From Oscillospiraceae bacterium (GTDB taxonomy: Bacteria > Bacillota > Clostridia > Oscillospirales > WRJC01), in NCBI GenBank assembly GCA_009780985.1, contig WQYZ01000001.1:4030-68029 (forward strand): a stretch of 64,000 bases of DNA, in the 5' to 3' direction. Below the pieces are notes generated by a model that saw nothing but the letters and a program-made list of their open reading frames with translations, was not told where the DNA came from and made no database searches. The translations under genes were made by a program, and so were the position numbers. This document shows, one piece after another, positions 9,600-34,580 of this stretch. Position 1 is the first letter of the stretch; every line of letters begins with the position of its first letter.

Positions 9600-9606
9600 A
9601 GGAAGT

Positions 9607-10983: not shown

Positions 10984-10998
10984 AATAGGTATAATTTT

Positions 10999-12485: not shown

Positions 12486-12535
12486 GATATAGAGGGGTCT
12501 CGCGTGCCTAAATGTGCGCGAGACCCCTCTATATC
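12486..12535. repeat. perfect 19-bp GC-rich inverted repeat (hairpin) in a 640-nt non-coding stretch
   Basis: GATATAGAGGGGTCTCGCG, a 12-nt loop, then CGCGAGACCCCTCTATATC. A second inverted-repeat pair ATATAAAAATCA (12453-12464) / TGATTTTTATAT (12545-12556) flanks it. Confidence 0.8.
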
Positions 12536-12702
12536 GGCTATTTGTGATTTTTATATACTCCGACTGTGTTGGAGTACCTTTGTCACGACATAAGAGAATA
12601 GTTTATTTTCGATAATTTAAAAACGCCTGATTGAGTAATAATTTATAGTCCGCCAGTCTTATGCTATTACACAAACGATAAAAAACCGTTTTAAAATGTC
12701 TA

Positions 12703-12831
12703 TTAATCTTCACTAATACATAAACGGTTATTTTCGACCGTAATAATAATTTTAGCTTTGGGATTAGTTTCCGCCGAAACTAATAATATATCAGTTTCTT
12801 TAACAATAATAACTTTTATATCTTTTGCCAT
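12703..12831 (-). CDS. small hypothetical protein (42 aa) immediately downstream of the resolvase
   Basis: ATG 12831 is preceded by a strong SD (AAGGGGG, 6-nt spacer). Product is MAKDIKVIIVKETDILLVSAETNPKAKIIITVENNRLCISED. Below the ORF-track cut-off. Confidence 0.35.
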   Translation of the reverse strand: MAKDIKVIIVKETDILLVSAETNPKAKIIITVENNRLCISED

Positions 12832-12845
12832 GAAGCACCCCCTTT

Positions 12846-13451
12846 CTACAAATTTTTTATATCATTGCATAGTTTATAAAATGCTGTCTTTTTAATATTC
12901 AGCAGGGATAAAGCGTCATCTAAAGTTATATCCTTATTCTGATATTGCCGAACAACCTTTATTTTTTCGGCTGTCGGTTCTTTCTTTGGTCGTCCGAGTA
13001 GCTTTCCGCTTGCTTTAGCAACCGCTATCCCTTGCGCCTGTCTTGTTTTTATTTTCTGCCATTCATACTCGGATTGAAACGCCTGTATCATTAGTAAAAT
13101 ATCCCGCATAAATCGGCTTAATAAATCGTTGCTTGTCTGGTCGGTATCAAGTAGCGGGGTATCTAAGAACTTTACAATAATGCCTTTTTGTTTGGTTAAG
13201 ATGTTCCACTGTTCAAGTATGCCGTTATAGTCCCGACCCAAGCGGTCAATATTTTCAATATAGAGCGTGTCACCTGTTTTAAGCCGTTTGACAAGGCTTT
13301 TATATTTGTTTCTGACTGGGCTTTTCCCGCTTTCCTTTTCAATAATGATATTTTTTTCATTAATCCCCAGTTTTGTCATTTCTATTAATTGCCTTGTTTC
13401 GTTCTGTTCCTCTGTCGAAACGCGAATTAGCGCATAAGTATCACCTGACAT
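12846..13451 (-). CDS. small serine recombinase (resolvase/invertase type)
   Basis: YALIRVSTEEQ catalytic motif, DRLGRD, and a C-terminal HTH. 201 aa. Confidence 0.9.
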   Translation of the reverse strand: MSGDTYALIRVSTEEQNETRQLIEMTKLGINEKNIIIEKESGKSPVRNKYKSLVKRLKTGDTLYIENIDRLGRDYNGILEQWNILTKQKGIIVKFLDTPLLDTDQTSNDLLSRFMRDILLMIQAFQSEYEWQKIKTRQAQGIAVAKASGKLLGRPKKEPTAEKIKVVRQYQNKDITLDDALSLLNIKKTAFYKLCNDIKNL

Positions 13452-13761
13452 AAAAAATCCTCCAAAATTAAATTAAAAATAAGTCATTATAACAGATAAA
13501 TTAGTCCGCGAAACCTATGGTTTTTGCGGACTGTTTTATTACTCTCTATATTATAGTTTATTTTGAAATTTCTGTCAATATAGCGTAAATAAAATCGGCA
13601 CTTTGAACAAAAATGCAACTCTTTTTTGTCTATTTTTAACAAAAATATCATTCCGTTTAAGGTATAGTTTTAGCGGAATTGCACAAAATTTCTATCACTT
13701 AACAACTTCATATTTTTATGAGGTTTTTATTTGGCTAAAAATAATTAAAGGTAATTGGAAA

Positions 13762-14457
13762 ATGAGAAAAAAGTATCTAATATATACGTTCGGTATAGCG
13801 TTTATAATTTTAATGCTGTTAAGTTCTTGCTCAAATAATAACAACGTTACGCAAACGGAATTTTTAAATTCGTCGGAAAATACCTCTCAATCAGTAAATA
13901 ACGAACCAACAGAAAAAGAAACGGCATATACACCGCTGTTACAGTTAGGAAGCGATTTAACAAGTTTCAATATTGAGATAGAGGGCGATATTTATCACTT
14001 ACCCGCTCCAATTTCGGCGTTTCTTGACAACGGTTGGGAAATCACAGGAAAAACAGTTGATACGATTGAAGCAAATGACTATAAGACTTCGGCTGTCAGT
14101 ATAACGAAAAATAACAAAACTTTATCCGATATTGATTTAAACAATTACAGTAACGAAGTTAAACCAGTAGAACAATGTTTTGTTTACGGCATTACGGCTA
14201 AAAAATACACCTTTTGGGGTGAAAGTGACGATATTGCCGTCATATTACCCGACGGGGTAACAATCGGGACATCAGAAAATGAAGTTACCGAAAAATATAA
14301 ATCTTTGCTTGACAATGGCGAGTTAAAAACAAGAATTGATAATAACGATTATATTTTATATGAATATGTCGGCATTTATAACCATACGATCCAGATTTAC
14401 ATAAATAAAGAAACAAAACTTGTTTATAACATTATGATTCAAAATTTAGAAAATTAA
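13762..14457 (+). CDS. lipoprotein, function unknown
   Basis: Signal peptide plus lipobox (IILMLLSSC) when started at the internal ATG 13762. The 53-codon upstream extension in the ORF track has no RBS. Confidence 0.6.
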   Translation: MRKKYLIYTFGIAFIILMLLSSCSNNNNVTQTEFLNSSENTSQSVNNEPTEKETAYTPLLQLGSDLTSFNIEIEGDIYHLPAPISAFLDNGWEITGKTVDTIEANDYKTSAVSITKNNKTLSDIDLNNYSNEVKPVEQCFVYGITAKKYTFWGESDDIAVILPDGVTIGTSENEVTEKYKSLLDNGELKTRIDNNDYILYEYVGIYNHTIQIYINKETKLVYNIMIQNLEN

Positions 14458-14488
14458 TAAAAACATTAAAAACAGAGGGGTATTATTT

Positions 14489-16936: not shown

Positions 16937-17014
16937 CTGATTAATTAAGTTTATATGAAATCTCTTTTTTGCATATTATGGCATAAAGATAACTTTTAAA
17001 AGGGGTGATTTCTT

Positions 17015-17149
17015 ATGAAATCAAAAGAACAAATAAAAATCATTGTTATCAATAGACCGACAAAAGAACAGGCAAAAATAAAAACTAAAGAATTATGCGA
17101 ATTTTTAGAAAAAACATGGTTTGTGCCAATAAATACTAAATCCAAATAG
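17015..17149 (+). CDS. small hypothetical protein (44 aa)
   Basis: ATG 17015 with SD AAAGGGGTGA. Product is MKSKEQIKIIVINRPTKEQAKIKTKELCEFLEKTWFVPINTKSK. It is the last ORF inside the element. Confidence 0.3.
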   Translation: MKSKEQIKIIVINRPTKEQAKIKTKELCEFLEKTWFVPINTKSK

Positions 17150-17249
17150 AAAATGATTAAAGCTCTATAAATGGGAGCTTTAATCATTTTTATTAATACA
17201 TATTTAATAAGACTATGGTATAATATGGTTAGATAAAGATTTTTTATTT

Positions 17250-17276
17250 TATGGTTTTCTTAACAGATTACTTAAA
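17250..17276. repeat. right terminal inverted repeat / putative att half of the 12.3-kb element
   Basis: The reverse complement reads TTTAAGTAATCTGTTAAGAAAACCATA, matching 4996-5022 at 25/27. Confidence 0.7.
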
Positions 17277-17361
17277 CTGTTTTCGGTATATACATAATAT
17301 AAAAAATCCTGTATAATTTAAGTTATAATGTTTTAATTTAATGTTGGAGGAAATGTAATTT

Positions 17362-18171
17362 ATGTATAAAAACCATGAAAAAATAAAAGACGAGTGGAAT
17401 GCGGAATCGGACGAATATTTTAAGGGTTGTGCGTCTGAACGTGAAATAAATATAATTATGAATGACCCGTCGCGCGCTTTTCCTGAGGAAGTATTTGATA
17501 TGATAAAAAAGCATTTTCCTACCCTGAAAGGAAGAAAAGTGCTTGTTCCGTCAAGCGGAGATAATATGGCGGTTTTTGCGTTCAATTTGTTGGGCGCAAA
17601 TGTAACGTCGCTTGATATAGCGGAACGGCAGTTGTTTAACGCGAAGCAGATTTCTGACAGGCATGGATGGGAAAATATTGAATACATCGTTGACGACAGC
17701 ATGTATTTAAATAAAATCAACGATGATATATATGATTTAATATATACGTCAAACAGTGTTCACACATGGATTTTTGACTTAAACTGCATGTATAAAAATT
17801 TCTACAGGGTTTTACGGCAAAACGGTAAATATATTATGTTTGAAACTCACCCCATGGTACGCTGCGTCGATGAAAAGGATAATAAAATAGTCCCGGTCAG
17901 ACCATATGGAAAATTTGAACCACATTATTGGAGTGAGGACACTGCGCCATGTTATTATTGGCGGACGCAGGATTTCTTAAATGCTCTGATAGAATCGGAA
18001 TTCATATTAACGCACGTGGAGGAATTCCATGCCAGCCCCAAGGCACTAGATAATTTTAGCTTTTGGTATGGGTCGGCAGAAGCCGAAGCGGATAACTATC
18101 GTAAATTTGATTGGAAATTAAATGAGTATGAGGTATTGCCGGAGTGGTTGGGATTATGTGCGGAAAAATAA
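17362..18171 (+). CDS. class I SAM-dependent methyltransferase
   Basis: Motif I-like VLVPSSGDNMAVFAFNLLGANVTSLDIAERQL and motif IV-like LIYTSNSV. SD GGAGG. 269 aa. Confidence 0.6.
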   Translation: MYKNHEKIKDEWNAESDEYFKGCASEREINIIMNDPSRAFPEEVFDMIKKHFPTLKGRKVLVPSSGDNMAVFAFNLLGANVTSLDIAERQLFNAKQISDRHGWENIEYIVDDSMYLNKINDDIYDLIYTSNSVHTWIFDLNCMYKNFYRVLRQNGKYIMFETHPMVRCVDEKDNKIVPVRPYGKFEPHYWSEDTAPCYYWRTQDFLNALIESEFILTHVEEFHASPKALDNFSFWYGSAEAEADNYRKFDWKLNEYEVLPEWLGLCAEK

Positions 18172-18242
18172 AATAAGGAGTAATTTTTTATGGATGATAA
18201 ATTAAAACAAAAGCTGATGGAAAAAATAAAAAGCTGATTGAT

Positions 18243-19238
18243 ATGGTAATTGAGCGGGTTAAACGAGATTTCCCCGATGAAATTGAGTTTATCGGACTTA
18301 CAGGGTCTTTTTCCAAAAACGATTTTCACGAAAAAAGCGATTTAGACTTGGTTATCTTAAACAACACAGATAAAGGTCGAGGAATTGCGGACGGTTTCAT
18401 CTTCGACGATGTGGGATATGATATTTATTGCGCGTCTTGGGATAATATTTCAAAGATAACCGATATGCAGATATTATATTGTTCAAAGCAGGAATACATA
18501 GAAAAATATAATAAAATAAAAGAACAAACATTGCAAAAATTTGCGGAACCCATAGGCATTAATTGTATTAACCGCGCAAAAGAATGTATTGACCGTGCTA
18601 AACAGGAATACGCAAATACAATGCTATTTAACGATTTGTGTAGAGTAAGATATGCTTCAGGGGAGTTTTTAGGTCATATAGTACACGTTATTGCAGACCT
18701 TAACAATTCTTGTATTGATAAGCACGGCATTAAAAGATTTCTCGAAGAACTTTTAAGATATAAATATCTGCCGGAAAATTTTGAAAAGTTATATATGACG
18801 GTAATCGAGGCAAAGAATATTCAGGAAATAAGAGAATCATCGTTTTCGCTGTTAAACGGGGTAGCTCGGCTTTACGACGAAATGCACCGGGATTTTACAG
18901 AACAACCCGTTCCGACATACGATAATCTTTGGGGGACATACGAAGAACTTTGGTGCGACTGCCGGAACAAAGTTATTCGCAGCGCCAGCCTGAAAGATAA
19001 ATCCTACGCATTTTACGCAGCTATTGGCGCGCAAAGTTATTTCGATGAAATGACGGCGGAAAAAGGAACGAAAAAATTCGATTTACTGCAATACTTTGAT
19101 GCAGATAATCTTGATATATTCAAAAACGCTTTTTTAAAAGCAATGGACGAATATCTAACGGAATATGATAAAGTAGGGCGGAAAGTATTGAAATTTGATA
19201 AATTTGAAGAATTGTATGATTTTTATATGAAAAGATAA
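18243..19238 (+). CDS. nucleotidyltransferase-domain protein (pol-beta superfamily), 5' end possibly frame-disrupted
   Basis: GLTGSFSKNDFHEKSDLDLVIL (GS...DxD) followed by a helical C-terminal domain. There is no SD before ATG 18243. A good SD plus ATG sits at 18190 in another frame (see findings). Confidence 0.65.
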   Translation: MVIERVKRDFPDEIEFIGLTGSFSKNDFHEKSDLDLVILNNTDKGRGIADGFIFDDVGYDIYCASWDNISKITDMQILYCSKQEYIEKYNKIKEQTLQKFAEPIGINCINRAKECIDRAKQEYANTMLFNDLCRVRYASGEFLGHIVHVIADLNNSCIDKHGIKRFLEELLRYKYLPENFEKLYMTVIEAKNIQEIRESSFSLLNGVARLYDEMHRDFTEQPVPTYDNLWGTYEELWCDCRNKVIRSASLKDKSYAFYAAIGAQSYFDEMTAEKGTKKFDLLQYFDADNLDIFKNAFLKAMDEYLTEYDKVGRKVLKFDKFEELYDFYMKR

Positions 19239-19252
19239 AAGGCGGCGATATT

Positions 19253-21061
19253 ATGGAAAAAATAAACAGACGAATTATAAATAATATTATATATTCGTTC
19301 AAAGCCGTATGGAAAATTGATAAATTCGTCGTGTTTCTTTACGGACTAAACGTACTGCTTGAAAAAGTGCAGCCATTCCTGTATATTTTTTTGCCGAAAG
19401 TATTGATTGACGAATTAACGTCCGACGATGCCGACTGGTTTAAAACAATCGGAATTATTCTTGCGTTTCTTATAGCAATTACGGCGGCTAATTTTATTCA
19501 GCGTTCAACTTACAGTCAGACGTCGGCAAGGTTAATAAAGTATAAATTGGAAAAAAGAAAAGAATTAGCCTTAAAAATCATTGATATTGATTATTCGTAT
19601 ATGGAAAATTCAAAAACCTTAAACGAATATACTCTCGCTCAGAATGCCGTAGGCAATTATTGCAACGGCATGGAGGGTATGATGCGTGAAATGTTTGGGT
19701 TTATATTTTCTGTACTAACAGTTATAGGCTATGTATCAATATTGGCGACTTTGAATATTTTTGTTGTATTGGCATTGATAATAATTACAGTTGTCAGCTA
19801 TTTTATAAAACAAAGAATTGCGTCACAAAACATGTCTAAAAGGGAAGAAACGGAAAACTGTGAAAGAAGATCGTCATATTATTCAAATGTTATGTCTGAT
19901 TTCTCTTATGGAAAAGAAATACGTATCTATAACGCAAAAAAATTTTTGACTGATAAATATAATCTTTTTAACGAAATGGGTATTGGAATCAGGAAAAAAG
20001 TAATTTTACAAAGGACAAAATGGAATTTTTTGCTGAATATTATCAATTTGATTAAAGGCTTAATATGTTACGGCTATCTGTTGTCGGCGGCTTTGAACGG
20101 CAATATACAAATCGGTTCGTTTCTTATGTATTTCGTAGCGTTAGGAGGATTTACGGGCTGGATTGAAGATGTTACCGAATCGCTTGCTCAACTGCGGAGA
20201 ATTGATATACAGGTTGACGATTACAGAAATTTTATGACTATTCCTGATATGAAAAATGGAAATGAACACAAAGATATAAAAACTGTTAATAAAATCGAAT
20301 TTAAAAATGTATGGTTCAAATATCCGGGTACTGAAAATTATGTTCTGAAAAATATAAACCTGTGTTTAGATACTGGGGATAAACTTGCTGTCGTTGGCAA
20401 AAACGGCGGCGGTAAAACGACGCTGATAAAATTATTATGCGGATTATATGAGCCTGACAAAGGCGAAATATTATACGACGGGATAAATCTGCGCGATTTG
20501 AACAGAGCGGATTATGTAAATCAGTTAGCCGTTATTTTTCAGACAATAAATATATTTGCTTTTTCGGTCAAGGCAAACGTCGCGTTATGCGCCAAAGATA
20601 ATATAAACGCGGAAAAAGTATCGGAGAGCTTAAAATCCTCTGATGTTGATTATATCCTGTCAAAAAGCCACAACGGATTGGATATGAGTCTGTCAAAAAT
20701 ATTGGACGACGAGGGTATCGAATTGTCGGGCGGGGAAAATCAGAAAATCGCTTTAGCGAGAGCGATATATAAAAACGGAAGCGTAATAATTCTTGACGAA
20801 CCTACTTCGCATTTAGACGCTATCGCTGAAAAGCGTATATATGACAACTATCTGCAAATTGCCGGCAATAAAATATCCGTCTTTATTTCTCACCGCTTGG
20901 CAAGCACTAAATTCTGCGACAATATTATTATGATTGAGGACGGTGAAATCATAGAAACAGGCACGCATGATTTTTTGATTGAACAAGACGGCAAATACGC
21001 CGAAATGTTCAATATACAATCTGTTTATTATAAAGACGAGGGAGCGGAAATATTAGAATGA
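19253..21061 (+). CDS. ABC transporter, fused permease/ATP-binding subunit (exporter half)
   Basis: Six-TM N-terminal domain, Walker A GKNGGGKTTL, signature LSGGENQK, Walker B IILDEPTS. Confidence 0.9.
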   Translation: MEKINRRIINNIIYSFKAVWKIDKFVVFLYGLNVLLEKVQPFLYIFLPKVLIDELTSDDADWFKTIGIILAFLIAITAANFIQRSTYSQTSARLIKYKLEKRKELALKIIDIDYSYMENSKTLNEYTLAQNAVGNYCNGMEGMMREMFGFIFSVLTVIGYVSILATLNIFVVLALIIITVVSYFIKQRIASQNMSKREETENCERRSSYYSNVMSDFSYGKEIRIYNAKKFLTDKYNLFNEMGIGIRKKVILQRTKWNFLLNIINLIKGLICYGYLLSAALNGNIQIGSFLMYFVALGGFTGWIEDVTESLAQLRRIDIQVDDYRNFMTIPDMKNGNEHKDIKTVNKIEFKNVWFKYPGTENYVLKNINLCLDTGDKLAVVGKNGGGKTTLIKLLCGLYEPDKGEILYDGINLRDLNRADYVNQLAVIFQTINIFAFSVKANVALCAKDNINAEKVSESLKSSDVDYILSKSHNGLDMSLSKILDDEGIELSGGENQKIALARAIYKNGSVIILDEPTSHLDAIAEKRIYDNYLQIAGNKISVFISHRLASTKFCDNIIMIEDGEIIETGTHDFLIEQDGKYAEMFNIQSVYYKDEGAEILE

Positions 21062-22845
21062 AAAAAAGATTACAGAACCTAAAAAAGAATATCGCGCTGA
21101 TATTATATTTCGTTAAAACTTCCTATTCAATTTCAAAGTCTTATATATGGGGAATGATATTTTCGTCAATTATAGGGATAATCGCCGGTTATAATTTTAT
21201 TATCATGCCGAAGTTTTTTATAGGCGAACTGATGAATCTTAAGAGAATCAATGTGATTGCGCTTTATTTGGTTATCTTTGTCTCAATTATTTTTATAACG
21301 AAAAACATATCTGATATTATATCAAACATGATGGAAATAGAAAAAACAAAATTGTTGAAAGGTTTGCAAAACATTATCGACCGCAGTATCATGGAAATGG
21401 ACTATGAACATATCGAGGATCCAAAAATTTTGGATTTGCGCGAGCAAGTAATGGAGTCAATACACGGGGATTTTTTTTACCGTATGTTTGACTGCCTGAC
21501 AAGCATTGTAACCGAAAGTATAAATTTAATATCGCTTGGCATATTAATTTCTTTTTTGAACCCAATAATTATTGTGATTCTCGTGTTAATTGTTTTAATG
21601 AACAATATATTCAATAAAAAAATCAATGAAACAACTTTTTTCTGGGACAAGATATTCGGCGTATTTAACCGCCGGCTCGGTTATTTCCATTCGATTACCA
21701 ACGATTTTTCAATCGGCAAGGATTCGAGGATTTATGACATAAAAGGGTTGTTAAATGACGAATTCGACGATTTCAATAAAAAATCATATGAGGCAAATAT
21801 GCGCGGTATGAAAAAGTCAGGATTATTTTACGGGCTTATTTCGATAAACGAACAGATACAATTACTGATTGTATATATTTACATAACATATAAAGTATTT
21901 ACAGGCGTAATAGGCATAGGCGGTTTTTCTATGTATGTAAGCGCGGCAAGCCAGTTCGGGAAATCAATTTTTAGGATTATGGACAGTTTTGTCGGATTCA
22001 GATTAATAAGCAATTATATTGATATGTATATGCAGCTGCTGAAACTTGGCGAAAACAAAAAACGCGGCGGTTTAAAAATTGTTGATACAGACGATATATG
22101 TATTGAATTTCGCAATGTTTCTTTTAAATATCCCCGTGCGGAGCAATACACGCTGAAAAATATAAACATTACAGTATATCCTCACGAGAAATTATCTGTC
22201 ATAGGTGAAAACGGCGCAGGTAAAACCACGTTTATAAAATTGCTTTGCGGGTTGTATAGACCAACATCAGGAGAAATATTAGTAAACGGCATTAATATAA
22301 CCGAGCTTGATTATGAAAGCTATATTCAAAAAATATCGGCGGTTTTTCAGGATTTCAAGCTGTTCGCGTGCAGTATAAAAGAAAATATTGCGTTCGATGA
22401 CTTTAATAACGACGAGGAAAAAATCATAGGAACATTGAATAAAAGCGGTATTCTGGAAAAGATAAATACTTTAAGCAATGGGATTGACACGCAGTTATAT
22501 AAATATTTCGACGAAAATGGCATTGAACTGTCAGGGGGTGAAAATCAGAAACTGGTTATATCGAGAGCTATATATAAAAATTCACCCGTGATTGTACTTG
22601 ACGAACCTACCGCTTCTCTCGACCCGTATGCCGAATATGAAATATTCAGCAAATTAAACGATATAAGTCAGGGCAAAACCGTCATCTTTATTTCGCACAG
22701 GTTGTCGAGTTGCAGAATATGCGATAAAATCGCCGTATTTCATAAAGGCGAAATTGTTCAATACGGCACGCATGACGAGCTTATAGGTTTTCCTGACGGG
22801 AAATACTATGAGATGTATACCGCACAGGCGCAATATTATATCTGA
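21058..22845 (+). CDS. ABC transporter, fused permease/ATP-binding subunit (second exporter half)
   Basis: A 4-nt overlap with the previous gene. GENGAGKTTF, LSGGENQK, IVLDEPTA. Probably a heterodimeric exporter. Confidence 0.9.
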   Translation: MKKRLQNLKKNIALILYFVKTSYSISKSYIWGMIFSSIIGIIAGYNFIIMPKFFIGELMNLKRINVIALYLVIFVSIIFITKNISDIISNMMEIEKTKLLKGLQNIIDRSIMEMDYEHIEDPKILDLREQVMESIHGDFFYRMFDCLTSIVTESINLISLGILISFLNPIIIVILVLIVLMNNIFNKKINETTFFWDKIFGVFNRRLGYFHSITNDFSIGKDSRIYDIKGLLNDEFDDFNKKSYEANMRGMKKSGLFYGLISINEQIQLLIVYIYITYKVFTGVIGIGGFSMYVSAASQFGKSIFRIMDSFVGFRLISNYIDMYMQLLKLGENKKRGGLKIVDTDDICIEFRNVSFKYPRAEQYTLKNINITVYPHEKLSVIGENGAGKTTFIKLLCGLYRPTSGEILVNGINITELDYESYIQKISAVFQDFKLFACSIKENIAFDDFNNDEEKIIGTLNKSGILEKINTLSNGIDTQLYKYFDENGIELSGGENQKLVISRAIYKNSPVIVLDEPTASLDPYAEYEIFSKLNDISQGKTVIFISHRLSSCRICDKIAVFHKGEIVQYGTHDELIGFPDGKYYEMYTAQAQYYI

Positions 22846-22864
22846 ATTACAAATTTAAAATAAA

Positions 22865-22893
22865 TTGACTTTTTATGTAATATGTGTTATAAT
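22865..22893 (+). promoter_or_regulatory. sigma-A promoter of the glucan phosphorylase operon
   Basis: TTGACT, a 17-nt spacer, then TGTTATAAT (extended -10), about 48 nt upstream of ATG 22941. Confidence 0.6.
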
Positions 22894-22940
22894 ATTACCG
22901 AATTAAGGTGTTTTAACACTATTTATCGGAGGAAAATCAA

Positions 22941-24563
22941 ATGGATAAAAAAATAAAGTGTTCATATTTTTGTATGGAATATGCGATAGACAGCGCACTC
23001 AAAACATATGCGGGCGGTCTCGGAATCTTAGCCGGGGATTACCTCAAAGGCGCGGTCCGAGACGGGTTGCCTGTCACCGGAGTCGGCATCAAATGGAAAC
23101 AGGGCTACGGCGAACAGTATATCGGCAAAGATATGCGCCCATACGACGCATACAAACAAAACGATTATACCGGAAAACTTGAGGATACCGGCGAGGAAGT
23201 GGAAGTAAAAATACGCCGCCGGAAAGTCAAAGTAAAAATATGGCGTTATAACGCTGATGGCGTTGATAATCTATATCTTTTGGATACCGACGTTGAAGGC
23301 AATGCGGGCGACGATCGCTGGATATGCGGTCAGCTCTACGGCTGGTTTGAAGAGGAGCGGTTAGCGCAGGAGATTGTTCTCGGCGTGGGCGGCGTACGCG
23401 CTCTTGAAAAGCTCGGCATAAAAACGGACGTTTATCATTTCAACGAGGGGCACGCCGTTTTCGCGGGGCTGGAACTCCTGTCAAAACAAATGGCTTCCGG
23501 TCATACTTTTGAGGAAGCCATGTCTGAGGTCAGGAAAAAAGTGGTATTCACCACGCACACTCCGGTAAAAGAGGGCAACGAATCGCATTCGTTTAACGCA
23601 ATGCAATATATGGGCGCGGACTGCGAACTGAAAAGAAACCAGCTTAAAGTCATCGGCGGCAATCCGTTCAATATGACCGTAGCCGCGCTGAGACTGTCGC
23701 GCAAGACAAACGGCGTAGCGCAGCTGCACGGCGAGACCGCCAACAAAATGTGGGAAAAAGTCGGCGGACGCTCTGAAATCATCGGCATAACCAACGCAAT
23801 CTACGCTCCCGTATGGACGGACGAAAGTATGAAAGAACTTGCCAAAGCAAAAAAATTCGGCGAACTCTATGAACGGCATATGGAAAACAAACGCAAATTG
23901 ATAGATTTTGTCAAAGACCGCACAGGCGTTGTACTGCGTGAAAACGTCATGCTCATAGGCTTCAGCAGGAGGGCTGCGCCGTATAAACGCTCTAATCTCA
24001 TATTCAGGGACGAGAGGTTTATACGCAGTCTGTTCAAAAAAGATAAAATTCAGATAATTTTTTCGGGAAAGTCTCACCCGTTGGACGACAACGGTAAAAA
24101 TATCGTCGAGGACATAGTTAAAATGGCTGCGCAATATCCCGACAACGTCGTTTTCCTTGAAAACTACGATATGGAAATCGGCGCGGCGCTGACGAGAGGC
24201 TGCGACGTCTGGCTCAACAACCCTGTGCGTCCGCTCGAGGCATCGGGAACTTCAGGAATGAAAGCGGCAATGAACGGCGTTATCAACGTTTCCGTGCTTG
24301 ACGGCTGGTGGCCCGAAATATGCGACGACGGCAGGAACGGCTGGCAGTTCGGCGGCGGCAAAGAGTTTAAATCATGGAAAGAATCCGACATACACGATTA
24401 CAGGGAGCTTAGAAAAATTCTGACCGAAAAGGTTATCCCCATGTATTATGAAAATCAGGACGAATGGCGTATCATGATGGCAAATTCTATCAACGACACC
24501 AAAGAAAAATTTGAAGTGGCGAGAATGCTTAAAGAATATTACGAAAAGTTATATAAAAATTGA
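22941..24563 (+). CDS. glgP: alpha-glucan family phosphorylase (GT35)
   Basis: YAGGLGILAGD N-terminal motif and the pyridoxal-phosphate lysine motif EASGTSGMKAAMNG. 540 aa. Confidence 0.85.
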   Translation: MDKKIKCSYFCMEYAIDSALKTYAGGLGILAGDYLKGAVRDGLPVTGVGIKWKQGYGEQYIGKDMRPYDAYKQNDYTGKLEDTGEEVEVKIRRRKVKVKIWRYNADGVDNLYLLDTDVEGNAGDDRWICGQLYGWFEEERLAQEIVLGVGGVRALEKLGIKTDVYHFNEGHAVFAGLELLSKQMASGHTFEEAMSEVRKKVVFTTHTPVKEGNESHSFNAMQYMGADCELKRNQLKVIGGNPFNMTVAALRLSRKTNGVAQLHGETANKMWEKVGGRSEIIGITNAIYAPVWTDESMKELAKAKKFGELYERHMENKRKLIDFVKDRTGVVLRENVMLIGFSRRAAPYKRSNLIFRDERFIRSLFKKDKIQIIFSGKSHPLDDNGKNIVEDIVKMAAQYPDNVVFLENYDMEIGAALTRGCDVWLNNPVRPLEASGTSGMKAAMNGVINVSVLDGWWPEICDDGRNGWQFGGGKEFKSWKESDIHDYRELRKILTEKVIPMYYENQDEWRIMMANSINDTKEKFEVARMLKEYYEKLYKN

Positions 24564-28161: not shown

Positions 28162-28233
28162 TGACCCGTACGAGAATCGAACTCGTGTTACTGCCGTGAA
28201 AGGGCGGTGTCTTAGCCTCTTGACCAACGGGCC
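28162..28233 (-). tRNA. tRNA-Glu (anticodon UUC)
   Basis: The reverse complement reads GGCCCGTTGGTCAAGAGGCTAAGACACCGCCCTTTCACGGCAGTAACACGAGTTCGATTCTCGTACGGGTCA. It has a 7-bp acceptor stem, a CTTTCAC anticodon loop and a T-arm ACGAG/CTCGT. No CCA is encoded. Confidence 0.9.
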
Positions 28234-28295
28234 TTATAAATTTCTGAGCGTGCCCAGAATCTGAACGCGTTCATACTGAATTTGTTCAGTATAAA

Positions 28296-28369
28296 TAGCG
28301 GAAGTTGGATTTGAACCAACGACCTGTCGGGTATGAACCGAATGCTCTAGCCAACTGAGCTATTCCGCC
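28296..28369 (-). tRNA. tRNA-Met, elongator type (anticodon CAU)
   Basis: The reverse complement reads GGCGGAATAGCTCAGTTGGCTAGAGCATTCGGTTCATACCCGACAGGTCGTTGGTTCAAATCCAACTTCCGCTA. It has a D-arm GCTC/GAGC, a T-arm GTTGG/CCAAC and a TTCATAC loop. It lacks initiator features. A lysidine-modified tRNA-Ile2 cannot be excluded. Confidence 0.85.
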
Positions 28370-28424
28370 ATAATCACTGAATTTATTCAGTATATTCACA
28401 TTTACTTAAAAAGAACACTTATAT

Positions 28425-29008: not shown

Positions 29009-29821
29009 TTAAAAAAACTTTTTCAGGTATTCCCCGGCTTCGATATATTCTTCTTTTGTGGATAAATGCTCTAACATAAGAGGGATATTTTCGTCAAGTT
29101 TGCGTACTTCTTCAACCAAACATCTGTGGCTGAAATTGCCTTTCCCCGCGATAACCTCGCTCAAGTGAACGGTCATTTCCTGCGAGAGAGTTATATCTTT
29201 TACATGAATACTTTTTATATATTTGCCGAGTTTTGAAAAGCAGTCTTTGATAACTTCTTCCGTGCTGTAATATTTCAAGGGACTGTTTATTGTGTTTACT
29301 ATATCGAGATGCGCGGCAAACTGCTTGCGGTCGATTGCGCGAATCAAATCCAAATAGCTGTCCGCATCGTACGGATACATCCACTGCATCATTTCAAGAG
29401 TATAAAACGACCTTTTGGGGTTTACCGAATCTATTATATCTCTTGTTGTTTCGACTATCATATCAAACGCTTTTTTTGTGAAATTTTCTGGGGAATGACC
29501 GTCCCACTTATCGCCAAGATTCCCCGCAATATTGACGCAGCATTTCGTGTTGCTTTCATCTGCGATAAATAATTGTTCTTTGCAATGTTCGATTGCTTTT
29601 TTTCTTTCTTCGGGATTTAACGACATTGGATTGCACCAAGCTCCGATTTCTGCTAACATAATATCATGTTTTTCAGCCGCGTTTATAAAATCTTTTTTTG
29701 TATTCAGTTCGCTGATGCTGTGTATCCAACAGTACGCAGCCCTGTAGCCATATTTTTGATGAAGATAAACCCATTCTTCAGGGGTTCCAATTCCTTCCAT
29801 TATAGGTCCGCCAAGTCTCAT
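29009..29821 (-). CDS. sugar phosphate isomerase/epimerase (xylose isomerase-like TIM barrel)
   Basis: Size and pattern (AEIGAW..., HLDIVN, HVKD, MLEH) typical of the AP endonuclease 2/xylose isomerase-like fold. Confidence 0.65.
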   Translation of the reverse strand: MRLGGPIMEGIGTPEEWVYLHQKYGYRAAYCWIHSISELNTKKDFINAAEKHDIMLAEIGAWCNPMSLNPEERKKAIEHCKEQLFIADESNTKCCVNIAGNLGDKWDGHSPENFTKKAFDMIVETTRDIIDSVNPKRSFYTLEMMQWMYPYDADSYLDLIRAIDRKQFAAHLDIVNTINSPLKYYSTEEVIKDCFSKLGKYIKSIHVKDITLSQEMTVHLSEVIAGKGNFSHRCLVEEVRKLDENIPLMLEHLSTKEEYIEAGEYLKKFF

Positions 29822-29863
29822 AAAAATTACCCTCTCTTAATTTATTTTTCGTACTTATGTTAA

Positions 29864-30280
29864 TTAGAAAATATTTGTTTTTTTTATATTGTCTAAATTA
29901 TCTTTAACTTTATTATTTATATAATTCATAATTTTTAAGGCATCCCGTGCTTCAGTTTCTGTTAATTCGAAATAATTATCACCCGGATATCTTGTTTCCC
30001 GGTAATAATCAGCGAGTTTAGCCATTTCAAATGCCGTATCTTTATCAAACTTTTCAAAACCTAACTCACAGCACTTTTCGTATAATCGGCGGGGATTATG
30101 TGCAGACAAAGCTAATAAATCCGCTTCGCTCCCAAATTCTGAAATATAAGCTTTTAAAGATTTTTCTACGGATTGCTCACACAATTGACCGCACCCGGTA
30201 TATTCTTTAATGTTATATGCCGAATTTGCCAATTTAGCGTCCCGCTCTGCTATATAAAAGAAACTGCCTATCTTTGCCAT
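29864..30280 (-). CDS. HEPN domain protein (toxin partner of a HEPN/MNT pair)
   Basis: EQSVEKSLKAY, AHNPRRLYE and YYRETRYP segments typical of PF05168 HEPN proteins. It overlaps the upstream MNT gene by 13 nt. Confidence 0.75.
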   Translation of the reverse strand: MAKIGSFFYIAERDAKLANSAYNIKEYTGCGQLCEQSVEKSLKAYISEFGSEADLLALSAHNPRRLYEKCCELGFEKFDKDTAFEMAKLADYYRETRYPGDNYFELTETEARDALKIMNYINNKVKDNLDNIKKTNIF

Positions 30281-30507
30281 AACACAACGCCTTCTTTCTT
30301 TATCCAGTAATTAACATCCGACCATTTGTCTGCCGAATTTAACCGCTCCTCGGTTGTATAAACAACATCAATTTTTGTCATGAATTCTGAAACGATCCAC
30401 GCAACAGATAGCCTGTCTATTTTATCAATATCGGCGCAAACAATAGCCAAATCCACATCGGACATTAGATTGGCGGTACCCTTAGCCTGACTGCCAAAAA
30501 GAATCAC
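30268..30507 (-). CDS. minimal nucleotidyltransferase (MNT) domain protein, antitoxin partner; true start probably upstream of 30507
   Basis: ILFGSQAKGTANLMSDVDLAIV (GSxxxG...DxD). The frame stays open upstream to about 30591 and encodes domain-like sequence (TRQIVKDAWGKLKPVVEETENCRK) without an ATG/GTG/TTG. Confidence 0.7.
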   Translation of the reverse strand: MILFGSQAKGTANLMSDVDLAIVCADIDKIDRLSVAWIVSEFMTKIDVVYTTEERLNSADKWSDVNYWIKKEGVVLWQR

Positions 30508-30630
30508 TTTCCGGCAGTTTTCTGTTTCTTCGACTACAGGTTTGAGTTTTCCCCAAGCGTCTTTAACAATTTGCCTCGTAAAAATTACCCTCCCGATATA
30601 TTTCTAAAATTTTACATTTTTAATTTTATA

Positions 30631-30981
30631 TCATTCTGCATTGTGCGTATAATTTAATATTTTAATCATGTTCTCACCATCTGAAATATCCGAAGCAACT
30701 GTTTCCGCCATCTTTTTGGCAAACGGGCACGGATATCCGATAGGCGTTCCTTTTTGTATGCATGACGCAAATGCAATGGTGTCCGCGCCTCTTTCCAAAA
30801 ATTCACGCGCTCTCAGAACAGCTTTTTTCCCGGGACAGCCGCCGCAGTTTATAAATCCGATTATTTCGATATCCTCTGTGACATCAGAAAACGCGCCGCC
30901 TTTTTCCCGAATCATTCTGAAACATGTCGTTCCCGGACAAAAATCTTCTGTTTGCATACATCTGATAATCCCGACTTTCAC
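30631..30981 (-). CDS. CGGC domain-containing protein
   Basis: FINCGGCPGKK motif plus additional conserved Cys residues (IRCMQTEDFCPGTTC, ASCIQ). 116 aa. Confidence 0.7.
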   Translation of the reverse strand: MKVGIIRCMQTEDFCPGTTCFRMIREKGGAFSDVTEDIEIIGFINCGGCPGKKAVLRAREFLERGADTIAFASCIQKGTPIGYPCPFAKKMAETVASDISDGENMIKILNYTHNAE

Positions 30982-31082
30982 TTTATATTCCCCCCTCGCA
31001 TTATCTTCATTTTACACCTTTTCTCCCATTTTGTCAATACTCAGCCCTTCTATTTTATCCGCACTCATTTTAATTAACTGTA

Positions 31083-31111
31083 TTGACATAAATCGACACG
31101 GGTGGTATAAT
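31083..31111 (+). promoter_or_regulatory. consensus sigma-A promoter of the SIR2-TPR gene
   Basis: TTGACA, a 17-nt spacer, then TGGTATAAT. Both hexamers are perfect and a TGn extension is present. Confidence 0.65.
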
Positions 31112-31135
31112 ATACACAGAGGAATATAATGGAAT

Positions 31136-32401
31136 ATGGAGGTAAAAACTGTGGAATATATAAATTTATCCGAACTTATTGATACAGTTTATAATTGTAA
31201 ACCAAACGAACGGTTTTGTTTTATTTTAGGCGCAGGTGCGTCTGTGTCGTCCGGGATTCCTACCGGTGCACAAATGGCGACTAAATGGTTAAAGGAACTT
31301 GAAGACTTTGGACACGAAAAAACGGAAGACTGGCTCGACGCCCTAAAAGAAGAAGGAAAAAATATTGCGGAAAATCCGGGTATATACTATTCCGAATTGT
31401 ATGACCGCCGATTTGAAAATCCATTAGACGGATATTTAAGATTACAAAAAGAAATGGAATCAATTACGCCAAGTATAGGATATTATTATCTATCTTGTAT
31501 TCTCGCAAACACAAAAAATAATCTTGTTATTACGACAAATTTCGATAGTCTTACAGAGGACGCCGTTTATACGTTTACTGGAAGAAAAGCATTAACTATC
31601 ACTCATGAAGCGTTAGCAAAATATATTTTTATAAAATCCGGCAAAAGGACTAAAATACCAGACAGACCGATTGTTGCAAAAATTCACAGGGATTTATTTC
31701 TTCAGCCAAAAAGCAAAGCGGAAGATATAAAAGAATTATCTGAAGAATGGAAAAACGTTTTAAAAGAGATTATGGATATTTGTACGCCTATCATAATCGG
31801 ATATGGCGGGAACGACGGAAGTCTCATGGGATTTTTAGAGAGCTTAGACGATAACAAAAAAATATACTGGTGTTGCATAAGTAATCCTAATGATAGAATA
31901 CATAATCTTCTTGAAAAATACGATGGCTATTTAGTTCATATTGAGGATTTCGACAAAACAATGTATTCATTCGGAGTAAAATTCAAGTATAAATTTTCGG
32001 AAGAAAAACTTAAAAACGATATAGAAAAACGTGTTCAAAAATACAACATTCAGATTGAAAGTCTTGATCCCGAACGAAATATCGAAGAAGCAAAGCAGTA
32101 TTTTCAAAACGGAAAAACACATCATTTAAATAAAAAATATTTCGAAGCGATTATAGATTATACAAAAGCTATTTACCTTAACCCCGGTAATGATGCATAT
32201 TATAATGGGCGCGGCGTCGCTTACTACAACCTTGAAGAATATGATACAGCTCTTATAGACTTTACAAAAGCTATTGAACTTGCCTCAGATAATGCTAAGT
32301 ATTATTATGATCGTGGCAACACTAACAAATATCTCAAAAAAAATAAAGAAGCAGAATCAGATTTTGCAAAAGCAAAAGAACTTGGCTATACACCTACATA
32401 A
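31136..32401 (+). CDS. SIR2-like (SIR2_2, NADase-type) domain protein fused to C-terminal TPR repeats
   Basis: FILGAGASVSSGIP, VITTNFDSLTE (Asn), VAKIHRD (His) and IIIGYGGNDGS occur in canonical order, followed by three TPRs at the C-terminus. The functional start may be the in-frame GTG 31151 (SD GGAGG 8 nt upstream). Confidence 0.75.
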   Translation: MEVKTVEYINLSELIDTVYNCKPNERFCFILGAGASVSSGIPTGAQMATKWLKELEDFGHEKTEDWLDALKEEGKNIAENPGIYYSELYDRRFENPLDGYLRLQKEMESITPSIGYYYLSCILANTKNNLVITTNFDSLTEDAVYTFTGRKALTITHEALAKYIFIKSGKRTKIPDRPIVAKIHRDLFLQPKSKAEDIKELSEEWKNVLKEIMDICTPIIIGYGGNDGSLMGFLESLDDNKKIYWCCISNPNDRIHNLLEKYDGYLVHIEDFDKTMYSFGVKFKYKFSEEKLKNDIEKRVQKYNIQIESLDPERNIEEAKQYFQNGKTHHLNKKYFEAIIDYTKAIYLNPGNDAYYNGRGVAYYNLEEYDTALIDFTKAIELASDNAKYYYDRGNTNKYLKKNKEAESDFAKAKELGYTPT

Positions 32402-34580
32402 CAAACAAATCTTCCTGCGCGTCGTAATACTCCGTGAATGTCCCCTCAATTTTTTCATAATTGCCGCTCGGCAGGAGTTCGCGGGATTTCACGTTGTCCT
32501 TCCAATAACAGTCAAACATTCTTTCAAGCTCGGCTTTTATATCTTCGTGGAATACCGGAAAGGCAATTTCAAGACGCCTCGTGGTATTTCTCGTCATCAA
32601 ATCCGCCGAACTCATATAAACTTGCGGTTCGCCGCCATTTTTATTGTCTCCGAATATAAATATCCTCGAATGTTCCAGAAACCGTCCCACTATACTTATC
32701 ACTCTTATGTTGTCAGTTTTGCCCGGTATTCCCGGCAGCAGACAGCATATGCCGCGTATAAGCAAATCTATCTTTACCCCGCTCTGAGAGGCTCTGACTA
32801 ATTCCTCTATAATATCTTTATCTGTAAGAGAGTTCATTTTTAATCTAATGCGTCCCGTTTTGCCGCTCTCAGTTTTTCGTATCTCTTCGCCTATAAATTT
32901 TATTATTTCGCTCTTGAATTGAAAAGGCGCGACTAAAAAGCATGAATAGTCGTCGGTCGGGTCCGAAGTTGTTATGGAGTTGAAAAATTTCATCGCGTCT
33001 TTGCCTATCTGCAAATCTGATGTGATAATTCCTATGTCCGTATACAATTTAGCGGTCTTTTCGTTGTAATTGCCTGTTGCTAAATGAGTTATATATGTTA
33101 TATCGTTTCCGCTTTTTTTTGTGATAAGCGTTATTTTCGAATGTATTTTATATCCCTCCACGCCGTATATGACGTTGCAGCCGGCTTCTTCAAGTCTTTT
33201 TGACCAGTTGATGTTGTTTTCCTCGTCGAAGCGCGCCTGAAGTTCAACCACTGCCGTAACGTGTTTTCCGGCTTCTGAAAGACGGCATAGATAATTTATA
33301 ATCTGCGAGTTTTCGCTGAGCCTGTAGAGGGTTATTTTTACGCTGACTACATCGGGTTCAAATACGGCTTCTTCCAAAAGCTTTAGATACGCTTTAATCG
33401 TATGCTTGGGGAAAGACAGGAATATATCTTTCTTATCTTTTTCGACCGTTTCCATAACGGATTTATTCCCGTCGATTTCTTTTGGAAACACAGGATGTAT
33501 CGGCGTATAGAGCATATCGTCCGAGAGAATTTTGTTGTCTGTTTTGTCTATTTTATTTTTAAGTTCGAATATAAAATTCTGATCCAACGGAACGCACGTA
33601 ATAAAAGCCTGCTCTTCAAGTATGTTTAATTTCGCGCACAGATATTTTTTCATCGCGTTTAATTTGCTCCTGCTGAACTTGTTCATGGGGCTTTTACTTA
33701 TTTCAAGTCTGACGGGGGATAGCTTCCCTCTTCTTTTAAGAATATCGTTCATATATGTCCTGTAGTCAATATTCGCGTTGTAACTTTCATAGTCCGAAAA
33801 AGATTCTTCAACGGTGATATCCGCATTTCTTGTTATTCTTATTATGAATTTAGACGAGACTTTATGCTTTTTGAAAAGCTCTTTCGCATACTGATATATA
33901 ACATCTTCGGATAAAATATATTTGTATTCCTGTGCGGATTGCGTATCCTGCGCTGCAGATTTTTTTTTGCCTTTACCGTCTTTCTTGTCTTTAATGTCAA
34001 GATTAGCGGGTATTTCTATTATTCTGTCTGTATTTTTATTCTGCGAGATGATTCCGTATGAATTTTTATTTTCGTAATTCAGCTCTAAAATAATATATAC
34101 GCTTTTGTTGAACAAATGCGGAAACGGGTGTTTTGTATCTATTATCTGAGGCGAGAGCAGCGGCATAATTTCACGTTTGAAATAACTTTTAAGCCATTTC
34201 TTCTCGTCTTTGGACAGTTCGCCGAATTTGCAGTATTTTATGCCGTGGGCTTCAAGCTGACGCGAAACGTTCAAAAACATCTTATCGGCTTCGGGATAAA
34301 GTTCTTTTGTCATTCTGAAAATTTCTTTAAGCTGCCTTTCCGGACTCCAGCCGGTTTTATTGTCGTTTAACCCAATGTCTTTGAGCAGAGACTTATCATA
34401 TAGGCTGCCTACCCTAATCATATAAAATTCGTCCAAATTAGAGTGGAAAATAGAGACAAACTTAAATCTCTCAAATAGAGGCACGGAATTATCCCCGGCT
34501 TCTTCCAATACTCTTTTGTTGAATTTCAAAAATGACAACTCTCTGTTTATATAATAGTCGTTTGTTTTCATAATAATCAC
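32394..34580 (-). CDS. ppk1: polyphosphate kinase 1
   Basis: YINRELSFLKFNKRVLEEA N-terminal signature, phospho-His region YKIHSKITLI and a second PLD-like HSRIFIF. The probable start is the ATG at 34571 (MKTNDYY). Confidence 0.9.
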   Translation of the reverse strand: MIIMKTNDYYINRELSFLKFNKRVLEEAGDNSVPLFERFKFVSIFHSNLDEFYMIRVGSLYDKSLLKDIGLNDNKTGWSPERQLKEIFRMTKELYPEADKMFLNVSRQLEAHGIKYCKFGELSKDEKKWLKSYFKREIMPLLSPQIIDTKHPFPHLFNKSVYIILELNYENKNSYGIISQNKNTDRIIEIPANLDIKDKKDGKGKKKSAAQDTQSAQEYKYILSEDVIYQYAKELFKKHKVSSKFIIRITRNADITVEESFSDYESYNANIDYRTYMNDILKRRGKLSPVRLEISKSPMNKFSRSKLNAMKKYLCAKLNILEEQAFITCVPLDQNFIFELKNKIDKTDNKILSDDMLYTPIHPVFPKEIDGNKSVMETVEKDKKDIFLSFPKHTIKAYLKLLEEAVFEPDVVSVKITLYRLSENSQIINYLCRLSEAGKHVTAVVELQARFDEENNINWSKRLEEAGCNVIYGVEGYKIHSKITLITKKSGNDITYITHLATGNYNEKTAKLYTDIGIITSDLQIGKDAMKFFNSITTSDPTDDYSCFLVAPFQFKSEIIKFIGEEIRKTESGKTGRIRLKMNSLTDKDIIEELVRASQSGVKIDLLIRGICCLLPGIPGKTDNIRVISIVGRFLEHSRIFIFGDNKNGGEPQVYMSSADLMTRNTTRRLEIAFPVFHEDIKAELERMFDCYWKDNVKSRELLPSGNYEKIEGTFTEYYDAQEDLFVM

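Follow-up and report, generated by a model that had tools for sequence, protein, structure and literature searches.

A stand-alone SIR2-TPR protein in an Oscillospiraceae bacterium: a candidate single-gene defence protein from a family also carried by phages and plasmids

A 64,000-nucleotide (nt) stretch of contig WQYZ01000001.1 (assembly GCA_009780985.1, positions 4,030 to 68,029) from an Oscillospiraceae bacterium, referred to here as the window, carries a gene for a protein in which an N-terminal SIR2 domain is fused to C-terminal tetratricopeptide repeats (TPRs). Profile, sequence and predicted fold all place the SIR2 domain nearest to the Argonaute-associated SIR2 of SPARSA. The protein stands alone, because no neighbouring gene is conserved across 78 loci of its relatives. 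By analogy with DSR2, it could be a self-contained, single-protein NAD+ hydrolase (NADase) defence of the abortive-infection type with the TPRs as its sensor, a reading to which we give a probability of roughly 0.55. A single-gene defence candidate had already been proposed in a preliminary description of this DNA. The candidate itself stands, resting on the carriage of relatives in a phage hotspot and on plasmids and on the divergence of the TPR part, whereas the arguments originally drawn from its genomic context were found to be weak.

The SIR2 domain and its predicted catalytic residues

The open reading frame (ORF) of the SIR2-TPR gene is intact (31136..32401, + strand) and encodes 421 amino acids (aa) from the ATG at 31136 to a TAA stop at 32399-32401. 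The domains and motifs of the product are given below, with GsSir2, the Sir2-APAZ chain of Geobacter SPARSA, as the reference for alignment.

31190..32032, + strand, SIR2 (SIRim / SIR2_2) NADase-type domain, about aa 19-299 (PADLOC profile, phmmer, Foldseek)
31220..31261, + strand, nucleotide/cofactor-binding loop FILGAGASVSSGIP, aa 29-42 (aligned to GsSir2 FLGAGTSRSAGLP)
31532..31546, + strand, TTNFD motif with the predicted catalytic N135 (31538-31540) and D137 (GsSir2 alignment)
31685..31687, + strand, H184, the predicted catalytic His in KIHRD (aligned to GsSir2 H186)
31799..31816, + strand, GYGGND motif, aa 222-227, with D227 at 31814-31816 (GYSGRD of GsSir2 in the alignment)
32069..32395, + strand, three TPRs, aa 312-420 (Pfam TPR_1/2/8/11/17 and helices of the model)

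All four of the SIR2_2-type motifs claimed for the ORF are present: FILGAGASVSSGIP, VITTNFDSLTE (N135, D137), VAKIHRD (H184) and IIIGYGGNDGS (D227). The span originally assigned to the gene started at 30631 and so also takes in the opposite-strand CGGC gene, although the 421-aa ORF within it is as described. The domain belongs to the SIR2_2/SIRim superfamily, with Pfam SIR2_2 matched above its cut-off at aa 130-243 (E=6e-6, 26.8 bits against 24.5), and enrichment near defence systems has been reported for the SIRim clade taken together (bioRxiv 10.1101/2024.09.18.613514).

The top PADLOC profile for the protein was Aga_SIR2-PNTD (SIR2-APAZ; E=4e-29, aa 19-299), with the fusion profile of SIR2 and prokaryotic Argonaute (pAgo) at E=7e-24 and the generic SIR2 models at only about 22 bits. 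No ThsA, DSR1 or DSR2 model was among its PADLOC matches (E<=0.1 for DSR1 and DSR2). The ranking with SIR2-APAZ as the best profile was repeated in 10 other family members. When PDB sequences were searched with phmmer, the sole SIR2 matches were the GsSir2 chains of Geobacter SPARSA (8in8/8jkz, E=6e-8), and Foldseek placed SPARSA 8y80_E first (1.8e-9), followed by DSR2 and KomBC. The BFVD viral fold library gave TPR matches only, and none for the SIR2 part. The catalytic Asn had first been compared with that of ThsA and DSR2; the pAgo-associated SIR2 of SPARSA is a nearer relative than ThsA or DSR.

In the GsSir2 alignment the TTNFD, KIH.D and GY.G.D motifs are in register, with N142 corresponding to N135 and H186 to H184. 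GsSir2 N142 and H186 have been shown to be catalytic by mutation and cryo-EM (PMC11452484), and the Asn and His proposed earlier as the catalytic pair therefore fall on proven residues. N135 is invariant both in 45 and in 120 homologues, and the family-invariant positions are G32, G34 and S36 in the G-loop, N135, D137, H184, G222, Y223, G225 and D227. Based on these conserved residues, the protein is predicted to be an NAD+ hydrolase. An AlphaFold2 model built with 45 homologues had a mean pLDDT of 91.2; its single low-confidence stretch is aa 185-195, immediately after H184, with pLDDT below 50 only at aa 187-193. In SPARSA, tetramerisation repositions a "catalytic loop" and aligns H186 (PMC11452484).

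A classical sirtuin deacylase of the CobB/Sir2 kind was considered and ruled out, as the protein reached only 17.7 bits with the NCBIfam model for NAD-dependent deacylases, whose cut-off is 243. The SIR2-TPR sequence also lacks the CxxC pairs of a Zn-binding Cys4 module.

The TPR module

Pfam TPR_1/TPR_2 matched the C-terminus with E of about 1e-13, and the AlphaFold2 model has six helices at aa 312-415 that form three TPRs, so profile and model agree on the three C-terminal repeats reported at the outset. The SIR2 domain is linked to them by one helix of roughly 20 residues (aa 289-309 in the model). In Foldseek comparisons, the C-terminal third superposed on the three-TPR peptide-binding domains of PP5, CHIP, SGT and RPAP3 with a root-mean-square deviation of 0.6-1 A. 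The protein stops exactly at the boundary of the third TPR, without a capping helix, and its closest relative (P0002; 56% identical, 494 aa) has two more repeats beyond that point. The window copy is among the shortest of the family, its 3 TPRs comparing with a median of about 9; with so few repeats, its range of recognition would be narrow, or possibly impaired.

A family of SIR2-TPR proteins

A search with the full-length protein returned 2,582 relatives. The best 120 of them nearly all carry SIR2_2 and many TPR families, at 373-732 aa and 32-57% identity, and homologues 35-57% identical cover 94-99% of the query length. Searching 1.84 billion cluster representatives exhaustively with the SIR2 domain gave 2,030 matches at E<=1e-3 and 517 at E<=1e-30, in which the domain is almost always N-terminal. 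As a single-sequence TPR search under-detects the repeats (39/140), a family TPR profile was used instead; it found TPRs in 107/140 new top representatives, the others being mostly fragments or proteins with HAT/TPR-like repeats. Because the SIR2 domain is N-terminal and TPRs were found in these 107, we regard the SIR2-TPR proteins as a coherent family by sequence, with a pAgo-type N-terminal SIR2, a C-terminal TPR array and a stand-alone gene. The window protein has the succession that defines the family, namely TTNFD, K[IL]HR and GYGGxD followed by TPRs.

Contigs of one genome per species from GTDB gave 166 matches in a total of 185,579 species, with a scattered distribution that takes in Clostridia, Bacteroidota, Myxococcota (Nannocystis), Spirochaetes, Planctomycetota, Verrucomicrobiota, Chlorobi, Gammaproteobacteria and others. 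Complete family proteins have 362-941 aa (median about 632), and of the 70 complete genomic members, 69 are longer than the window protein (416-421 aa). The SIR2 alignment of the 362-aa outlier (L077) is shortened, and the gene may have been miscalled; other complete short forms have 461-502 aa. Some genomes hold more than one copy, as tandem paralogues in a Pyrinomonadaceae metagenome-assembled genome (MAG; L074, 6530-8389 with 619 aa and 8846-10711 with 621 aa) or as two diverged copies on different contigs in several MAGs (L029/L056, L051/L057 and L045/L072). PADLOC v2 holds no full-length model for the SIR2-TPR architecture.

A conserved enzyme with fast-changing repeats

Within groups of closely related proteins, the two halves differ greatly in their conservation. 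In the phage alleles described below, the SIR2 part is 95-99% identical and the TPR part 70-92%, with TPR arrays of different lengths. The corresponding ratios of non-synonymous to synonymous substitution rates (dN/dS) are 0.12-0.28 for SIR2 and 0.55-0.69 for TPR; values above 1 were not found in the TPR region of these alleles. The synonymous rate is raised in the TPR part as well, which suggests that recombination may also be involved, and these dN/dS values and the raised synonymous rate do not distinguish positive selection from recombination or relaxed constraint in this part. The same pattern of conserved SIR2 and divergent TPRs was seen between Nannocystis species (92-98% against 42-65% identity), in the pair L041/L063 (93% against 37%), and in Flavonifractor and Thomasclavelia. 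A conserved effector joined to hypervariable repeats resembles immune receptors that sense with repeats, and fits poorly with a TPR domain that serves one fixed cellular partner. The hypervariability across the family also backs the earlier suggestion that the TPR module is the sensor, although binding itself is a prediction.

Carriage on phages, plasmids and proviruses

SIR2+TPR genes on mobile elements were sought by tblastn, with viral contigs taken from IMG/VR and phage genes typed with PHROGs. On plasmids, a 716-aa SIR2+TPR protein is encoded on a 32-kb plasmid of Photobacterium toruni, and a conjugative plasmid of Rhizobium phaseoli has a SIR2+TPR gene with FRG, S8 peptidase and NERD-kinase genes around it. 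The Haloferax pleolipovirus provirus Halfgib1 encodes a 555-aa SIR2+TPR protein in its integrase-proximal accessory region. Two Vibrio prophages (PQ189367 and PQ189330) carry SIR2_2 proteins of 612-624 aa beside the integrase (L089, 1354-3228; L091, 4974-6812), and no Pfam match was obtained for the C-terminal region of these proteins. One of the two genes is auto-annotated "pAgo__SIR2APAZ", though Argonaute is absent, and so illustrates the mislabelling of solitary pAgo-type SIR2 genes by annotation pipelines.

Eight viral contigs of IMG/VR have relatives at 37-40% identity. In one tailed-phage backbone, the SIR2-TPR gene lies on the opposite strand, between the DnaC-loader replication module and the "lipoprotein"-terS-terL-portal packaging module, and the backbone is 97-99% identical between alleles for terL, portal and DnaC. 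Sister phages were found through terS. In two of them (L112 and L117) this junction holds no cargo, and its flanking genes are about 100 nt apart; in two others (L113 and L114) it holds an opposite-strand gene for a 676-aa P-loop NTPase (4145-6175, - strand in the locus). Phage accessory hotspots are known as reservoirs of anti-phage systems (PMC9122126), and a junction with such variable cargo fits the pattern of an accessory hotspot.

The 676-aa hotspot protein has the Walker A motif GEWGCGKT, and its plasmid homologues are annotated by PGAP as "P-loop NTPase fold protein". It looks KAP-like by eye and may be another single-gene defence candidate.

Neighbouring genes of the relatives

No conserved partner emerged from all-against-all clustering of 601 neighbours (+-5 genes) at 78 genome loci, and none of the window's neighbour genes recurs near any relative. 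The neighbours of the closest homologue, P0002, are unrelated to those in the window. This agrees with the initial statement that none of the usual partners of such domains (SLOG, HerA, pAgo, TIR or a STAND NTPase) is fused or adjacent to the protein, which was borne out by the Pfam, PADLOC and NCBIfam scans.

Two of the loci have further features. In the P0017 locus (L102/L103, 9561-15639), which adjoins the rpoBC-L7/L12-L10-L1-L11-NusG-SecE cluster, a 142-aa retropepsin-like (Asp_protease_2) gene stops 12 nt ahead of the SIR2-TPR start, and a TraG/VirD4-type coupling protein is encoded 2 kb downstream. In the P0024 locus (L104/L105, 10001-17218), the gene for a 638-aa SIR2-TPR protein is located 3 kb upstream of ppx-ppk1, with a ppk1 that is 30% identical. 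A link with polyphosphate was considered and rejected as chance, the proximity to ppk1 being found in 1 of about 85 other loci and with this 30%-identical ppk1.

The start, promoter and surroundings of the window copy

The GTG at 31151 is probably a likelier start than the ATG at 31136. It lies 8 nt after GGAGG and would yield a 416-aa product; this is the likelier product because of that spacing and because an independent public-metagenome gene call of the identical locus (P0001) also has 416 aa. The promoter and the 3' overlap with ppk1 were confirmed as first reported. The features of the gene ends and of the surrounding genes are as follows.

28162-28233, - strand, tRNA-Glu
28295-28370, - strand, tRNA-Met, about 2.77 kb from the SIR2-TPR gene
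29864-30280, strand not given, HEPN gene
30268-30507, - strand, MNT gene
30631-30981, - strand, CGGC gene, divergent from the SIR2-TPR gene
31083..31111, + strand, sigma-70/SigA-type promoter: TTGACA at 31083-31088, 17-nt spacer, TG at -15/-14 and TATAAT at 31106-31111 (12/12 consensus match)
31138..31153, + strand, probable ribosome-binding site GGAGG (31138-31142) and in-frame GTG start (31151-31153), read from the sequence
32394..32401, no strand assigned, 8-nt overlap between the convergent stops of the SIR2-TPR gene and ppk1 (ORF coordinates)
32394..34580, - strand, ppk1, convergent (ORF coordinates)

Perfect TTGACA-17-TATAAT sites occur three times in the window, compared to 0.04 expected from shuffles. 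Besides the SIR2-TPR promoter, one is at 13550-13578 (- strand), inside an AT-rich block described below, and the third, with an upstream TG, is at 52983-53011 (+ strand) and precedes a small ORF (53056-53364). The divergent promoter of the CGGC gene (31037-31009) is an 11/12 match. No terminator-like sites were found in 29800-32900, including the region between the SIR2-TPR gene and ppk1.

Going away from the SIR2-TPR gene, the order on the CGGC side is CGGC, MNT, HEPN, a xylose-isomerase-like TIM barrel, GNAT, tRNA-Met and tRNA-Glu, and on the other side the gene adjoins ppk1-ppx. The tRNA pair at about 2.77 kb, the HEPN/MNT pair and the divergent CGGC gene are thus as described previously, but their interpretation as signs of accessory DNA is weak. 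Both tRNAs are on the minus strand, therefore their 3' ends face away from the SIR2-TPR gene; no integrase or att-like repeat flanks the gene, the region of 27-35 kb having only short AT-rich chance repeats; and the AT-richness of the gene is only mild (GC content 33.6%, compared to 38.9% for the window). An insertion squeezed against a core gene had also been suggested. It is not demonstrable, because the nearest ppk1 relatives, at 75-80% identity, share no synteny with the window.

The MNT ORF has only 79 aa from a GTG at 30507, and its frame is open upstream, where it encodes a typical MNT N-terminus. At the expected start is an ACG (30581-30579) in an 18-nt context of ribosome-binding site plus start, GAGGGTAATTTTTA[C/T]GAG, and an otherwise identical context surrounds the ATG start of the AP_endonuc_2 gene, at a distance of 758 nt (29817-29834 and 30575-30592 for the two copies). 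This suggests a start-codon mutation, possibly leaving a crippled antitoxin beside an intact HEPN gene, or a non-canonical start. Further away, an AT-rich block (4000-23000, GC 0.26-0.37 compared to 0.39 for the window) has genes for a 496-aa large serine recombinase (5313-6803, + strand) and a 201-aa resolvase/invertase (12846-13451, - strand). It probably represents a mobile element that has integrated here; about 8-18 kb lies between it and the SIR2-TPR gene, with intervening genes of normal GC content.

Proposed function and alternative explanations

The proposal of a DSR2-like defence starts from the domain identities, the aligned and conserved catalytic residues, the stand-alone architecture, the mobility of the family and the fast divergence of its TPRs. 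The SIR2-TPR protein would be made constitutively from its strong promoter and normally be held inactive. The groove of the C-terminal TPRs could then act as the sensor by binding a phage-derived protein or peptide, and this binding could lift autoinhibition and/or drive SIR2-SIR2 oligomerisation, comparable to the tetramers of SPARSA and DSR2. Oligomerisation would order the loop after H184 (aa 185-195), allowing N135 and H184 to hydrolyse NAD+, and the depletion of NAD+ would halt both the infected cell and the phage. The NADase activity, the trigger, the oligomerisation and the anti-phage outcome are what we infer by analogy with these systems.

Several results weigh against such a defence role. 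The Pfam SIR2_2 score is barely above its threshold. If a potentially lethal NADase is expressed from a promoter that matches the consensus perfectly, its autoinhibition would have to be tight, and the array of three TPRs that ends against ppk1 may be truncated. The literature search found no paper naming or experimentally testing a SIR2-TPR protein, and broader queries gave only papers on DSR2, SPARSA, SIR2-HerA, Avs5 and SIRim. The chromosomal neighbourhoods also point away from defence. They were scanned with PADLOC and Pfam for 110 (+-1) and 150 (+-2/3) neighbours of 78 genomic relatives, 260 in total from about 70 genomes, with 49 ordinary genes of the window scanned with PADLOC as the background control. 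There was no enrichment of defence genes above background among the 260 neighbours, which are mostly housekeeping genes such as those for NusG, PhoH, PGI, aconitase, ribosomal proteins, F420 ligase and SurA. About 6 of the 260 are convincing defence genes (a Type IIG restriction-modification gene, a Type II specificity subunit, IetA, LmuA, PD-Lambda-2_B and a second SIR2). The weaker PADLOC matches (mad2/3/8, HTH_VI, RmrA, AriA, ATPase) are non-specific, because the control genes gave equally many. Neighbourhood enrichment, which had been suggested as a check, was therefore not found for the chromosomal relatives, and the argument from defence islands was rejected. In addition, the gene is syntenic across species within Nannocystis and within Flavonifractor, where it behaves as a stable chromosomal gene.

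Some of these points would suit a housekeeping or regulatory enzyme, that is, a sirtuin-like deacylase or ADP-ribosyltransferase docked by its TPRs and involved in stress, sporulation or polyphosphate physiology. The mainly core metabolic and translation genes around the family, the synteny within some genera and the strong constitutive promoter could all be expected of such an enzyme, as could the adjacent ppk1-ppx in the window, the ppx-ppk1 at 3 kb from the L104 relative, and the likeness of the three-TPR module to chaperone-peptide-binding TPR domains. We think this improbable, however, since the domain is of the SIR2_2/SIRim branch and not a classical sirtuin, with the deacylase model far below its cut-off; the distribution is patchy (166/185,579 species across many phyla) with no conserved neighbour; proximity to ppk1 in 1 of about 85 other loci is compatible with chance; a hypervariable TPR part beside a near-invariant enzyme would be unexpected for a fixed partner; and the family rides on phages and plasmids. 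That mobility could instead indicate a role in mobile elements or in conflicts other than host defence, from which the carriers benefit, such as superinfection exclusion, an addiction or toxin module, or manipulation of host NAD+ or of host proteins by ADP-ribosylation, in which case the window copy would be a domesticated or stranded version. The relatives in the phage hotspot, on plasmids, in the archaeal provirus and beside prophage integrases are in keeping with it, and so are chromosomal copies outside defence islands. It is nevertheless unlikely, as there are no mobile genetic element genes around the window copy, and prophage morons of this kind have usually proved, when tested, to be defensive and to protect the lysogen as well (Rousset et al., PMC9122126); it follows that such a role would overlap heavily with the defence reading.

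The remaining explanations concern the window copy itself. It could be a decaying remnant in which a deletion against ppk1 removed most of the TPRs, leaving a sensor-dead or inert protein. This could explain why it is shorter than all but one of the complete members and ends at a TPR boundary without a cap where P0002 continues for two repeats, why its stop overlaps ppk1, and why the nearby MNT gene also looks damaged at its start. However, its frame is unbroken and none of the catalytic or family-invariant residues is lost, the model is confident up to and including the last repeat, the promoter is perfect and the ribosome-binding site good, three TPRs are a standard minimal functional TPR domain according to the Foldseek matches, and other complete short forms (461-502 aa) exist, so that decay seems quite improbable to us. 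A multi-gene system with the CGGC protein and/or the HEPN-MNT pair would be in line with the physical adjacency of these genes and the divergent 11/12 promoter of CGGC, but is very improbable indeed, as CGGC, HEPN and MNT are absent beside the 78 genomic and 8 viral relatives, P0002 has unrelated neighbours and the CGGC protein had no PADLOC match.

If the DSR2-like defence is nonetheless the right reading, the family would add a compact single-gene NADase defence of 416-940 aa, with a canonical, engineerable TPR sensor joined to the enzyme by one helix, and would offer a simple model for how a ligand on a repeat domain switches a SIR2 NADase on. It would also be clear why solitary SIR2 genes are auto-labelled as partial "pAgo SIR2-APAZ", as in the Vibrio prophage. 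The alleles of the phage hotspot (empty, SIR2-TPR and P-loop NTPase) are natural isogenic comparisons. Should the family have some role other than defence, the contrast between a near-invariant enzyme and fast-changing TPRs still needs an explanation.

More broadly, and with odds that we would put a little below even, the SIR2-TPR proteins could be a widespread, unnamed class of one-protein immune receptors, in which a hypervariable TPR array directly senses phage proteins and activates a SPARSA-type SIR2 NADase without an Argonaute, NTPase or second-messenger partner, and which is traded among phages, plasmids, archaeal viruses and chromosomes. The three-TPR protein in the window would then be a natural "minimal" receptor suited to work on the activation mechanism. 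Such a class may be the pool behind the Argonaute-associated SIR2 module, and possibly also behind the eukaryotic SIRim-TPR-like proteins, which branch with pAgo sirims (bioRxiv 10.1101/2024.09.18.613514).

Comparison with known systems

SPARSA has the closest SIR2 domain, with the GAG loop and the GYxGxD motif common to both, and the mobile catalytic loop after the His of SPARSA corresponds to the sole low-confidence part of the model of the window protein. The window protein differs in having no APAZ, as the match to the SIR2-APAZ profile ends at about position 303 of 1010 and the C-terminus consists of TPRs. The PADLOC scan of 49 window genes also revealed no pAgo gene, the flanking genes being CGGC and ppk1, and where SPARSA senses with a guide RNA and target DNA, the sensor here would be a protein-binding TPR array.

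In DSR2, which combines SIR2 with an alpha-solenoid repeat sensor, binding of the phage tail tube protein activates the NADase in a tetramer (PMC11850899). DSR2 of Bacillus subtilis has the same logic as the window protein, with an N-terminal SIR2 and a C-terminal repeat sensor in one polypeptide, and it was the second-best fold match. It is, however, longer, at about 1,000 aa, and contains a MID domain and HEAT-like repeats, whereas the window protein has 421 aa, a SIR2 of the pAgo branch and three canonical 34-residue TPRs.

Avs5 (SIR2-STAND-TPR, AVAST type 5) likewise has a SIR2 effector and a TPR-type sensor in one protein, and NLR-like SIR2 proteins including Avs5 have a hypervariable repeat sensor (PMC12931631; PMC9122126). 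In contrast to Avs5, no STAND or P-loop NTPase was found in the window protein by Pfam, PADLOC or NCBIfam, and its SIR2 is joined to the TPRs by a helix. The PADLOC candidate PDC-S65 has a related SIR2 domain (E=2e-12 here, and to 1e-21 in family members), but the match is limited to about positions 30-290 of 592 and the C-terminal part is unrelated. PDC-S65 is an unvalidated candidate, for which the literature search gave no paper.

ThsA of Thoeris and SIR2-HerA have the same SIR2_2-type NADase effector with the same Asn/His chemistry. Unlike ThsA, the window protein has no SLOG or TIR, and neither do its immediate neighbours (Pfam and PADLOC, with NCBIfam for the protein); the PADLOC scan of the 49 other window genes matched no model for ThsB, and the Pfam summary showed the top 25 of 74 families, in which a TIR domain might not surface. 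Unlike SIR2-HerA, there is no adjacent HerA ATPase in the window or in related loci. The SIR2-TPR protein is therefore without the defining features of SPARSA, DSR, Thoeris, SIR2-HerA and Avs5. A SIR2 NADase with a repeat sensor in a single protein is already known in kind, and the version with a TPR array appears to be a new and plausible one.

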